A stretch of DNA of 64,000 nt, taken from sequence record ON528727; one strand, written 5' to 3'. A model generated the notes under the pieces. That model was not told where the DNA came from, ran no database searches, and saw only the letters and a program-made list of their open reading frames with translations. The position numbers and the translations under genes are program-made. Below are positions 41,503 to 42,524 of the stretch, piece by piece; position 1 is the stretch's first letter; each line of letters starts with the position of its first letter. This DNA is from Shigella phage ESh17.

Positions 41503-41575
41503 TGGGAATTAGCCAAGTTGGTAAGGCACTGGATTTTGATTCCAGGATGCAAAGGTTCGAGTCCTTTATTCCCAG
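41503..41575 (+). tRNA. tRNA-Gln (anticodon UUG)
   Basis: cloverleaf folded by hand; 7-bp acceptor tgggaat/attccca; anticodon loop ttTTGat; GGTTCGAGTCC T-arm. Confidence 0.8.
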
Positions 41576-41576
41576 C

Positions 41577-41663
41577 GCGAGAATGGTCAAATTGGTAAAG
41601 GCACAGCACTTAAAATGCTGCGGAATGATTTCCTTGTGGGTTCGAGTCCCACTTCTCGCACCA
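41577..41663 (+). tRNA. tRNA-Leu (UAA), type II with long variable arm
   Basis: acceptor gcgagaa/ttctcgc; loop ctTAAaa; encoded CCA. Confidence 0.8.
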
Positions 41664-41668
41664 AATTT

Positions 41669-41742
41669 GCGGATATCGTATAATGGCATTACCTCAGACT
41701 TCCAATCTGATGATGTGAGTTCGATTCTCATTATCCGCTCCA
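41669..41742 (+). tRNA. tRNA-Gly (UCC)
   Basis: acceptor gcggata/tatccgc; loop ctTCCaa; encoded CCA. Confidence 0.8.
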
Positions 41743-41752
41743 ATTTAATTTA

Positions 41753-41826
41753 CTCCGTGTAGCTCAGTTTGGTAGAGCGCCTGATTTGGGATCAGGAGGT
41801 CCAAGGTTCAAATCCTTGTATGGAGA
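41753..41826 (+). tRNA. tRNA-Pro (UGG)
   Basis: acceptor ctccgtg/tatggag; loop ttTGGga. Confidence 0.8.
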
Positions 41827-41828
41827 CT

Positions 41829-41918
41829 GGAGGCGTGGCAGAGTGGTTTAATGCACCGGTCTTGAAAACCGGCAGTCGCTCCGGCGACTCATAGGTTCAA
41901 ATCCTATCGCCTCCGCCA
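41829..41918 (+). tRNA. tRNA-Ser (UGA), type II
   Basis: acceptor ggaggcg/cgcctcc; loop ctTGAaa; long variable arm; encoded CCA. Confidence 0.8.
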
Positions 41919-41924
41919 GTTTTT

Positions 41925-42000
41925 GCTGATTTAGCTCAGTAGGTAGAGCAACTCACTTGTAATGAGAAGGTCGGCGGTTCGATTCCGTCAATCAGCACCA
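41925..42000 (+). tRNA. tRNA-Thr (UGU)
   Basis: acceptor gctgatt/aatcagc; loop ctTGTaa; encoded CCA. Confidence 0.8.
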
Positions 42001-42001
42001 A

Positions 42002-42076
42002 GGCCCTGTAGCTGGAAGGTTCAAGCAAGCGACTCATAATCGCCAGATGGTGGTTCAATTCCACCCAGGGCCACCA
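42002..42076 (+). tRNA. tRNA with CAU anticodon (Ile2 lysidine-type or Met)
   Basis: acceptor ggccctg/cagggcc; loop ctCATaa; encoded CCA. Confidence 0.75.
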
Positions 42077-42088
42077 AATTATGAATTA

Positions 42089-42175
42089 GGGGAGTTATCC
42101 CGTAGAGGTAGCGGTGTGGACTGTAAATCCATTGTCATTGCGACTCGGGTGGTTCGACTCCATCACTCCCCACCA
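42089..42175 (+). tRNA. tRNA-Tyr-like (GUA), type II, with irregular acceptor/D-arm junction
   Basis: perfect 7-bp acceptor ggggagt/actcccc, anticodon stem-loop gtgga-ctGTAaa-tccat, long variable arm, T-arm ggtgg-ttcgact-ccatc, CCA; but 4 nt rather than 2 between acceptor and D-stem. Confidence 0.5.
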
Positions 42176-42179
42176 ATTT

Positions 42180-42254
42180 GGATGTGTAGCTCAGTGGTAG
42201 AGCAGTTGACTGTTAATCAATTGGTCCATGGTTCGAATCCATGCATGTCCGCCA
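42180..42254 (+). tRNA. tRNA-Asn (GUU)
   Basis: acceptor ggatgtg/catgtcc; D-arm gctc-agtggta-gagc; loop ctGTTaa; encoded CCA. Confidence 0.75.
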
Positions 42255-42368
42255 AATTTGTGACAACTGTCACATTAATATCTACTTGACGCGATTATAA
42301 GGGTTGAACTGATCACTCTTCTCTTAATTTCGTGTGAAGACATCTTGATTGTTGGAGTAGGTATTAAT

Positions 42369-42444
42369 GTGGCCGTAGTTCAGTTGGTAGAACTCGAGAT
42401 TGTGATTCTCGTAGTCATGGGTTCGACTCCCATCGGTCACCCCA
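42369..42444 (+). tRNA. tRNA-His (GUG); no encoded G-1
   Basis: acceptor gtggccg/cggtcac; loop ttGTGat; discriminator C; encoded CCA. Confidence 0.7.
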
Positions 42445-42448
42445 ATTA

Positions 42449-42524
42449 CGGGGCATAGCTCAGAAGGAAGAGCAAGGACCTTCTAAGTCCTAGGTCGTAG
42501 GTTCGATCCCTACTGCCTCGACCA
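42449..42524 (+). tRNA. tRNA-Arg (UCU)
   Basis: acceptor cggggca/tgcctcg; loop ctTCTaa; encoded CCA. Confidence 0.8.

Follow-up and report, generated by a model that had tools for sequence, protein, structure and literature searches.

The tRNA array of a Tequatrovirus with Tyr, Asn and His genes: a vertically conserved T4-like array with a probable dosage role

The tRNA array of Shigella phage ESh17 raises the question of why a T4-like phage should encode tRNAs for Tyr, Asn and His besides those known from T4. The original prediction, made from the sequence, counted 11 tRNA genes in about 1 kb and took these three as additions that might replace host tRNAs destroyed by anticodon nucleases. 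The window analysed here is the whole stretch of 64 kb, in which ARAGORN found exactly 11 tRNA genes, all on the + strand and located between 41503 and 42524, in the order listed together with the neighbouring RNA features.

41503-41576, + strand: tRNA-Gln(UUG), common to T4 (ARAGORN; Rfam 67.4 bits)
41577-41663, + strand: tRNA-Leu(UAA) (ARAGORN; Rfam 59.3 bits)
41669-41742, + strand: tRNA-Gly(UCC) (ARAGORN; Rfam 63.3 bits)
41753-41827, + strand: tRNA-Pro(UGG) (ARAGORN; Rfam 66.8 bits)
41829-41918, + strand: tRNA-Ser(UGA) (ARAGORN; Rfam 62.6 bits)
41925-42000, + strand: tRNA-Thr(UGU), 96.1% identical to T4 tRNA-Thr (ARAGORN; Rfam 72.9 bits)
42002-42076, + strand: CAU tRNA of the Ile2 (lysidine) type (ARAGORN, as Met; best match E. 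coli tRNA-Ile)
42089-42175, + strand: tRNA-Tyr(GUA), class II, with an atypical D-arm region (ARAGORN; Rfam 30.2 bits, gathering score 29)
42180-42254, + strand: tRNA-Asn(GUU), minority allele, with G73 and encoded CCA (ARAGORN; Rfam 72.6 bits)
42274-42368, + strand: conserved structured RNA of about 95 nt, unannotated, directly 5' of tRNA-His (MFE, covariation)
42369-42444, + strand: tRNA-His(GUG) without encoded G-1, with C73 and encoded CCA (ARAGORN; Rfam 65.1 bits)
42449-42524, + strand: tRNA-Arg(UCU) (ARAGORN; Rfam 66.1 bits)
42893-43007, + strand: homologue of T4 rnaD (small stable RNA, species 2), with 115 identical positions over 4-119 of the 119 of T4 rnaD
43014-43152, + strand: homologue of T4 rnaC (small stable RNA, species 1), identical at 137 of 139 positions

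The Rfam model RF00005, which is independent of ARAGORN, called all 11 genes at or above its gathering score, and the two programs returned the coordinates and anticodons that had been predicted. Ten of the genes scored 59-73 bits (E 1e-10 to 1e-14), and tRNA-Tyr was marginal (E 0.028). Since its score lies barely above the gathering score, the earlier caution in calling this gene only "Tyr-like" was justified; GenBank labels the phage's own copy "tRNA-Pseudo-GTA", a tRNAscan-SE pseudogene flag. The CAU tRNA is assigned to the Ile2 type because its best E. coli matches are annotated as tRNA-Ile (81.6% over the full length). The set as a whole is already known: it is annotated in hundreds of genomes, including the GenBank record of Shigella phage SHBML-50-1, the Tequatrovirus to which we assign the window. 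The Tyr, Asn and His genes do lie between the CAU and Arg genes, as had been stated, but they are not contiguous: between Asn and His lies a spacer of 114 nt (42255-42368). A 116-aa ORF is inserted between tRNA-Arg and the rnaD homologue. A scan of 41200-43400 for promoters and terminators gave sites no more numerous than in shuffled sequence, and the ORFs adjoining the array had no Pfam match and matched only PHROGs families of unknown function.

T4 has eight tRNAs, as had been stated, in the order Gln, Leu, Gly, Pro, Ser, Thr, Ile, segB and Arg, followed by rnaD and then rnaC, and T6 carries Met-Tyr-segB-Arg at the same position. The description of Tyr, Asn and His as "extra" genes nevertheless had the polarity reversed. 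The core from Gln to Thr was found in 487 phage records, Tyr together with Asn in about 418, the spacer together with His in 245, and the whole Tyr-Asn-spacer-His block in about 193. Tyr and Asn, which T2 also carries, are thus the majority state in Tequatroviruses, and T4 and T6 have a segB cassette there. The CAU tRNA of the window is identical to the RB3 allele and only 65% identical to that of T4/T6; similarly, its tRNA-Arg is 97.4% identical to RB3 and only 50.7% to the T4/T6 allele. T4 and T6 share these flanking CAU and Arg alleles, which are 65% and 51% identical, respectively, to those of the segB-less phages. We conclude that Tyr-Asn-(spacer RNA)-His is the common state in T4-like coliphages and T4 the exception, its set of eight probably resulting from a segB homing-endonuclease cassette that occupies the position and brings along divergent alleles of Ile and Arg. 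In the sister genera Jiaodavirus and Karamvirus, all four GUN tRNAs stand among tRNAs for Lys, Met, Gln, Ser, Ile, Trp, Gly and Pro. Recent capture of the block from the host was also considered and rejected, as the best chromosomal matches in E. coli were tRNA-Lys/Val genes (79-81%) and not the cognate genes; identities to the E. coli cognates were 58% (Tyr/tyrT), 68% (Asn/asnT) and 76% (His/hisR).

The tRNA-Tyr of the window is 100% identical to that of RB3 and 96.9% identical to that of T6. In both its variable arm and its T arm it does not differ from T6 or from the T5-like BF23, a close T5 relative. A73, the GUA anticodon and the long (class II) variable arm are all present. The D arm can be formed only with a C-C mismatch, as folded by ARAGORN, or with a connector of 4 nt joining its stem to the acceptor stem; judged against Jiaodavirus, Karamvirus and BF23, the connector is the likelier fold. 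By its homology to the active T6 and T5 tRNAs, variable arm included, this gene is a likely candidate for an anti-PtuAB phage tRNA-Tyr. Septu cuts tRNA-Tyr at C48/A49, in the variable arm and not in the anticodon (PMC13096335). Overexpression or amplification of T6 tRNA-Tyr rescues infection against Septu (Chihara et al. 2026, PMC13096335), and loss of the tRNA region in a mutant makes T6 more sensitive. T4, which has no Tyr gene, is the most sensitive of the T-even phages, and T2 resists the system. T6 tRNA-Tyr is not spared from cleavage, and the protection by one copy is only partial (PMC13096335). T5 tRNA-Tyr counteracts retron-Eco7, whose effector is PtuAB (Azam 2024, PMC11555353), and when a phage tRNA library was screened against PtuAB, tRNA-Tyr(GUA) alone was enriched (PMC11555353, PMC12445682). 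The suggestion that tRNA-Tyr is a target of a retron effector therefore agrees with published work (PMC11555353, PMC13096335), and the wider idea of counter-defence by phage tRNAs has published support for Tyr (T6 against Septu, T5 against retron-Eco7), without the reasoning from GUN anticodons on which it was built.

The tRNA-Asn of the window, with its GUU anticodon, G73, encoded CCA and every stem paired, appears to be an E. coli-type tRNA-Asn. It is only 78.8% identical to the RB3 allele and 93-98% identical to Asn genes in other T4-like phages. Published work names tRNA-Asn as a secondary target of PARIS AriB and of P2-OLD. AriB acts on Lys, Thr(UGU) and Asn(GUU) tRNAs, it cuts the Asn anticodon stem at 40/41, and T5 tRNA-Asn contributes to rescue (PMC12409363). 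The best AriB site, U36AAUC|A41, is found in tRNA-Lys (PMC12409363). It is precisely at the published AriB site that the two divergent tRNA-Asn alleles differ, the one reading U39-C40-A41, as in the window, and the other G39-C40-G41. Since the window allele reads U36-A-A-U-C-A41 in its anticodon stem, like the best site, it may be cleavable by AriB; T5 tRNA-Asn has G39-U40-U41 where the window has U39-C40-A41.

The His gene differs from both. A genome-encoded G-1 pairing with C73 is the major HisRS identity element of bacterial tRNA-His. We found that C73 and the GUG anticodon are present in the phage gene and that position -1 (42368) is T, as compared with G in E. coli hisR. Every copy examined from T4-like phages, T5-like phages and Bixzunavirus likewise has T at -1, and tRNA-His is nearly invariant over four genera. 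A general absence of G-1 from phage tRNA-His was considered and rejected: in a sample from IMG/VR, position -1 is G in about 17 of the 23 His genes located in arrays and another base in 6. The spacer and His gene form a module 92% identical to its Karamvirus counterpart, and the His gene is gone from Salmonella phage STP4-a.

Within the spacer, the 95-nt RNA showed an MFE z of -4.55 and a 14-bp terminal helix with compensatory changes, in which 98% of cells were paired as compared with 38-51% when the partners were slid. It occurs as a single copy in the window, and 355 records of phages from four T4-like genera contain it without annotation. A search of Rfam gave no match at E<=1. When IMG/VR was scanned for 15-mers of the spacer, 52 loci came up; only 4 of them proved real, all in close relatives. 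Several identities were rejected. The spacer is not a degenerate tRNA-Gln, a label appearing in match tables, as the Gln gene of Jiaodavirus and Karamvirus merely adjoins the conserved element; nor is it a homologue of T4 rnaC or rnaD, for which local alignment scores were the same as for shuffled sequences. A covariance model of the T4-like element gives no match in T5 or BF23, and homology to T5 RNAIII was not detectable. The spacer and RNAIII are alike in position and in a long terminal helix only. A general structured leader peculiar to His genes was likewise rejected for phage arrays: a spacer of 60-160 nt lies ahead of 5 of 26 tRNA genes for His and of 52 of 286 for other amino acids (Fisher p = 0.8). 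The phage tRNA-His fits neither codon demand nor any known defence role. There is an outside chance that the G-1-less tRNA and the 95-nt RNA form a special-purpose RNA module rather than a translational supplement. Such a module could, for example, serve as decoy or sponge for a host nuclease or other factor recognising acceptor stems or tRNA-His, or RNase P could free a stable regulatory RNA from it, and it would parallel the RNAIII-tRNA-His pair of T5.

We then weighed the explanations offered for the block. The original prediction saw in it a plausible replacement set against colicin E5-type nucleases, which recognise G34-U35 of the queuosine-family tRNAs for Tyr, Asn, His and Asp. All three variable tRNAs indeed have GUN anticodons, for which a random draw of three from the 12 families absent from T4 gives 4/220 = 1.8% in a post hoc calculation, and the Jiaodavirus and Karamvirus relatives also encode tRNA-Asp. 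The window itself has no tRNA-Asp and hence no selective cover of the E5 set, and in the relatives with Asp the GUN tRNAs sit among eight or more non-GUN ones. The anticodon loops (CUGUAAA, CUGUUAA and UUGUGAU) are those of E. coli tyrT/V, asnT and hisR and are not loop mutants, so the phage copies would be cut equally and should confer no resistance to an anticodon-loop nuclease. The nucleases known for Tyr and Asn cut elsewhere, PtuAB in the Tyr variable arm and AriB in the Asn stem, neither at G34-U35. A literature search, as absence of evidence only, gave no E5-type antiphage system, colicin E5 appearing there as a bacteriocin only, and demand already accounts for two of the three tRNAs. 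Nothing ties the Tyr/Asn/His block to recognition of a G34-U35 anticodon, and we consider this explanation very unlikely.

Codon usage had been named as the alternative, whereby the three tRNAs would simply meet amino-acid and codon demand, with no evasion of defence. In a comparison confined to 68 ORFs of the phage and 41 of E. coli, Tyr was the most over-used amino acid (phage/E. coli ratio 1.75), Asn followed at 1.57, tied with Lys, and the NAU codons UAU and AAU were enriched 2.4- and 3.2-fold. The other eight tRNAs follow the classical scheme of serving codons that the phage uses often and its host seldom, their codons being 1.5-7x enriched. The alternative thus stood for Tyr and Asn but not for His, whose ratio of 0.56 was the lowest of the 20 amino acids. 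Supply alone also does not explain that a near-identical tRNA-Tyr rescues T6 from Septu, with the Tyr-less T4 the most sensitive T-even phage (PMC13096335), or that T5 tRNA-Asn contributes to escape from PARIS (PMC12409363), and we regard pure supplementation as rather unlikely. Another possibility is that the genes are largely neutral cargo, shuffled by homing endonucleases and recombination, with the "pseudo" Tyr and the G-1-less His as decaying passengers. The array is mosaic, an RB3-identical Tyr standing beside an Asn closer to other T4-like phages, the spacer-His module is shared with Karamvirus and its tRNA is missing from STP4-a, and segB is statistically associated with tRNA genes (PMC13096335). 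Against decay, the stems of all three tRNAs are still paired, compensatory changes separate the Asn alleles and the Tyr D stems, tRNA-His is conserved across genera, and T6 tRNA-Tyr is expressed and active (PMC13096335). We give little credence to neutral cargo.

Taken together, the data suggest that the locus is probably a standard, vertically conserved T4-like array with a dosage role, supplying demand and buffering against tRNA-destroying defences, not those recognising G34-U35. By extension from T4 biology, the array would yield a polycistronic precursor, from which host RNase P and 3' processing enzymes would release the tRNAs and small stable RNAs. The tRNAs would then act by dosage, enlarging the pool of those most needed by an AT-rich phage (Tyr, Asn). 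The same surplus may buffer the cell against PtuAB/Septu and retron-Eco7, which destroy tRNA-Tyr, as shown in T6 and T5, and against the action of PARIS AriB and P2-OLD on tRNA-Asn, as shown for T5 tRNA-Asn and presumed for the window phage. The His gene would lie outside both proposed roles. As posed, the set matters little, phage tRNAs as counter-defence being an active published field that includes a near-identical Tequatrovirus tRNA-Tyr. The comparison shows that T4 represents its genus poorly, since the tRNA protecting T2 and T6 from Septu has probably been lost from it. The His gene without G-1, together with an undescribed conserved RNA, poses the small question of how, if at all, E. 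coli charges it.

Nuclease-resistant phage tRNAs reportedly carry mutated anticodon loops. The window shares with them the general idea of phage tRNAs replacing host tRNAs destroyed by defence nucleases (van den Berg et al. 2023, PMC10264068), whereas its Tyr, Asn and His loops are identical to the host's and the changes lie in the stems, variable arm and D-arm region. The T4 cluster of eight tRNAs with rnaC and rnaD resembles the window in its Gln-Leu-Gly-Pro-Ser-Thr segment (96% identical), in the conservation of rnaD and rnaC, and in anticodons matching phage-enriched codons; it differs in having segB in place of Tyr-Asn-spacer-His and other Ile and Arg alleles, and the 116-aa ORF between Arg and rnaD belongs to the window. 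The T5 tRNA-rich region also includes Tyr, Asn and His tRNAs, with the Tyr variable and T arms of the window and a tRNA-His without G-1 directly preceded by the stable RNAIII of about 106 nt, but T5 is from an unrelated family, its tRNAs number more than 20, and its RNAIII is not detectably homologous to the spacer RNA. A further close parallel is the T6 tRNA-Tyr/SegB locus (PMC13096335), from the same genus, with the same array position and a highly similar tRNA-Tyr, for which the expected mechanism is likewise tRNA-Tyr dosage against PtuAB cleavage. Asn and His are present in the window and absent from T6; the window has no segB beside Tyr, its sole SegB-like ORF being 31% identical and 40 kb away, so that SegB-driven amplification in cis, as in T6, is not expected.

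The tRNA cluster was found to comprise 11 genes, all on the plus strand, at 41503-42524, when ARAGORN was applied to the whole 64-kb window, and each gene was also called independently by the Rfam tRNA model. Coordinates and anticodons agreed exactly with those of the original prediction, confirming the 11-gene observation. The Rfam scores were 59-73 bits for 10 of the 11 genes, whereas tRNA-Tyr, at just 30.2 bits, barely exceeded the gathering score (29). The CAU tRNA, whose best E. coli matches were genes annotated as tRNA-Ile (81.6% over the full length), is of the Ile2 (lysidine) type. 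The region is 100% identical to that of Shigella phage SHBML-50-1 (KX130864/NC_031085; genus Tequatrovirus), in whose record all 11 tRNAs are already annotated, with tRNA-Tyr labelled 'tRNA-Pseudo-GTA'; the array is real, ordinary and already known as annotation. The three genes additional to the T4 set do lie between the CAU tRNA and tRNA-Arg, as had been claimed, but they are not contiguous, since a 114-nt spacer (42255-42368) parts tRNA-Asn from tRNA-His.

Features of the extra genes and of the region downstream of tRNA-Arg
42089-42175, plus strand, tRNA-Tyr(GUA)
42180-42254, plus strand, tRNA-Asn(GUU)
42274-42368, plus strand, structured RNA of about 95 nt (spacer RNA), directly 5' of tRNA-His
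42369-42444, plus strand, tRNA-His(GUG)
42543-42893, plus strand, 116-aa ORF (phrog_3355), inserted between tRNA-Arg and rnaD
42893-43007, plus strand, rnaD homologue, 115 of 116 aligned positions identical to T4
43014-43152, plus strand, rnaC homologue, 137 of 139 positions identical to T4

The T4 array reads as eight tRNAs, as stated in the original prediction, in the order Gln, Leu, Gly, Pro, Ser, Thr, Ile, segB, Arg, followed by the stable RNAs rnaD and rnaC. RB3 carries ten tRNAs, Tyr and Asn included, and T6 has Gln, Leu, Gly, Thr, Met, Tyr, segB and Arg. Of the records in the phage collection, 487 cover the Gln-Thr core to at least 80%, 418 Tyr+Asn, 245 (other genera among them) the spacer with His and 193 the complete Tyr-Asn-spacer-His block; thus, Tyr and Asn are in the majority, His is common and the T4 set is a minority. 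In both T4 and T6, segB occupies the position of this block. The Arg genes of these two phages are identical and their CAU genes nearly so, whereas their alleles are only 51% (Arg; window 42449-42524) and 65% (CAU; 42002-42076) identical to those of the window and RB3. Such divergent flanks would fit a homing-endonuclease cassette whose flanking sequences were co-converted and are presumably resistant to cleavage. From the position of segB and the shared divergent alleles, we infer that the eight-gene state of T4 is derived. Far from the array, an ORF at 1715-2245 on the minus strand, which matches T4 SegB with 31% identity across some 200 aa, probably encodes another GIY-YIG Seg-type homing endonuclease. 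Downstream of the array, the rnaD homologue begins right at the stop codon of the 116-aa ORF; this ORF gave no Pfam match and is not in T4 or RB3, where tRNA-Arg adjoins rnaD. Neither rnaD nor rnaC matched an Rfam family, and the end of rnaC resembles a tRNA T arm (CCGGGTTCGAATCCCGG).

Codon usage in 68 long ORFs of the window (18,198 codons) was compared with that in 41 ORFs (14,727 codons) of a 50-kb E. coli K-12 region. The T4-type tRNAs follow the classical codon-demand pattern, with phage enrichment of AGA (7.4-fold), AUA (5.2-fold), ACA (3.8-fold), GGA (3.6-fold), UCA (3.5-fold) and UUA (3.0-fold). The phage/host usage ratio was highest among amino acids for Tyr (1.75; UAU, 2.4-fold), with Asn second and tied with Lys (1.57; AAU, 3.2-fold), and His was the lowest of all twenty (0.56). 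Codon usage, which had been offered as the alternative to counter-defence, therefore accounts well for Tyr and Asn, but not for His.

The tRNA-Tyr gene has A73, a GUA anticodon and a long variable arm. Its low Rfam score and 'pseudo' label are due to an irregular D-arm region (42096-42115), where the D stem drawn by ARAGORN contains a C-C mismatch; comparison with Jiaodavirus, Karamvirus and T5-like copies points instead to a perfect CCGU/GCGG stem after a 4-nt UAUC connector as the probable fold. Across the copies compared, the connector is 4-5 nt instead of the usual 2 nt, and the BF23 stem is CUGU/GCAG. The irregular region is common to the tRNA-Tyr genes of T6, T5-like phages, Jiaodavirus and Karamvirus. 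The T6 gene, 96.9% identical to that of the window, yields a tRNA that is seen on northern blots and is biologically active (PMC13096335). Septu EcB88 (PtuAB) cleaves the tRNA-Tyr variable arm at C48/A49, and infection is restored by overexpression of T6 tRNA-Tyr or by its SegB-driven amplification (Chihara et al. 2026, PMC13096335). A T6 mutant without the tRNA region is more sensitive to Septu, and the most sensitive T-even phage is T4, which has no tRNA-Tyr, while T2 is resistant (PMC13096335). Tyr+Asn was found in T2 in the phage collection. In a phage-tRNA library screen against PtuAB, tRNA-Tyr(GUA) alone was enriched (PMC12445682). The same logic has been shown for T5 tRNA-Tyr against retron-Eco7 (Azam et al. 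2024, PMC11555353), bearing out the earlier remark that tRNA-Tyr is a retron-effector target. Counter-defence by tRNA-Tyr is, accordingly, already demonstrated experimentally in published work.

The tRNA-Asn gene is canonical (72.6 bits in Rfam, G73 and encoded CCA), and its allele is in the minority; identity to the Tyr+Asn block reaches 99% or more in only 34 records and is 90-92% in most. It shares 78.8% identity with the RB3 allele (L003 2564-2638), from which it differs by a fully compensated anticodon stem, and 93-98% with Asn genes of other T4-like phages. For PARIS AriB, tRNA-Asn(GUU) is a target of secondary rank but of biological relevance; the cut falls between nucleotides 40 and 41, with T5 tRNA-Asn contributing to rescue (PMC12409363). 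The two Tequatrovirus alleles differ at this site, the window reading U36-A-A-U-C/A41 and the common allele U-A-A-G-C-G (T5-like, U-A-A-G-U-U); U-A-A-U-C/A also occurs at the AriB site reported as best, which lies in tRNA-Lys (PMC12409363). This difference might reflect selection by AriB-like nucleases. tRNA-Asn is also cut by P2-OLD. A perfect 6-bp inverted repeat (GTGACA-AC-TGTCAC; 42260-42273, plus strand), which the Jiaodavirus relatives lack, lies just 3' of the gene.

It had been proposed that Tyr, Asn and His form a replacement set against colicin E5-type nucleases, which cut G34-U35 (GUN) anticodons. Three GUN families out of three would arise by chance in about 2% of cases, a post hoc figure that is weakened by demand already explaining two of the three. 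The anticodon loops of the three phage tRNAs are the same as the host loops, and would therefore be equally cleavable by an anticodon-loop nuclease. This sets them apart from the phage tRNAs with mutated anticodon loops that van den Berg et al. reported (PMC10264068). Moreover, we found no E5-type antiphage system in the literature searched, and tRNA-Asp is not in the window. In Jiaodavirus and Karamvirus, the GUN tRNAs belong to a broad set (Tyr-Lys-Asn-Asp-Met-Gln-spacer-His-Ser-Ile-Trp-Gly-Pro), of which the window block looks like a condensed, colinear version. We thus consider a replacement set of this kind very improbable. The counter-defence idea, and tRNA-Tyr within it, is already published; the unifying GUN-nuclease basis is not supported.

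The remaining interest lies in the His module. tRNA-His scores 65 bits in Rfam and has C73 and CCA, and its position -1 (42368) is T, whereas E. coli hisR has G. G-1 is the main identity element for HisRS. T at -1 was also found in every T4-like genus examined, T5, BF23 and one mycobacteriophage (window 42368-42369 compared with loci L005, L006, L065-L068, L070, L071 and L072). A missing G-1 is not universal in phage tRNA-His, as in an IMG/VR sample G stands at -1 in about 17 of 23 His genes located in arrays and is missing from 6. The literature found on tRNA-His and defence consists of minor mentions only: it is a possible minor AriB product (PMC12409363), and retron-Eco2 nicks the acceptor stems of several tRNAs, His included.

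The spacer RNA directly 5' of tRNA-His (folding z = -4.55) occurs in 355 phage records, from Tequatrovirus, Karamvirus, Jiaodavirus and Gelderlandvirus, with no RNA annotation of the element among the matches listed and no Rfam match. It is closed by a 14-bp terminal helix, the 3' strand of which ends at position -1 of tRNA-His, and compensatory changes were observed in this helix and in one internal hairpin. Paired cells amounted to 98%, as compared with 38-51% in slid controls, and two-sided pair changes to 6, as compared with 2.1 in shuffles; because only eight related sequences were used, these statistics are indicative rather than conclusive. In Salmonella phage STP4-a (L064 1205-1330), tRNA-His has decayed to a few nucleotides while the spacer element is kept with all terminal pairs intact, which hints that the RNA may function independently of His. 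A test for a general link of such spacers with His in phage arrays was negative. The spacer RNA showed no similarity to rnaC or rnaD. T5 carries an annotated 106-nt stable RNA, RNAIII, at the corresponding place, immediately 5' of a G-1-less tRNA-His and likewise with a long terminal helix; homology was not detectable, and RNAIII is a positional analogue. The most economical reading is that the spacer RNA would be another small stable RNA processed from a tRNA precursor, like species 1 and 2 of T4.
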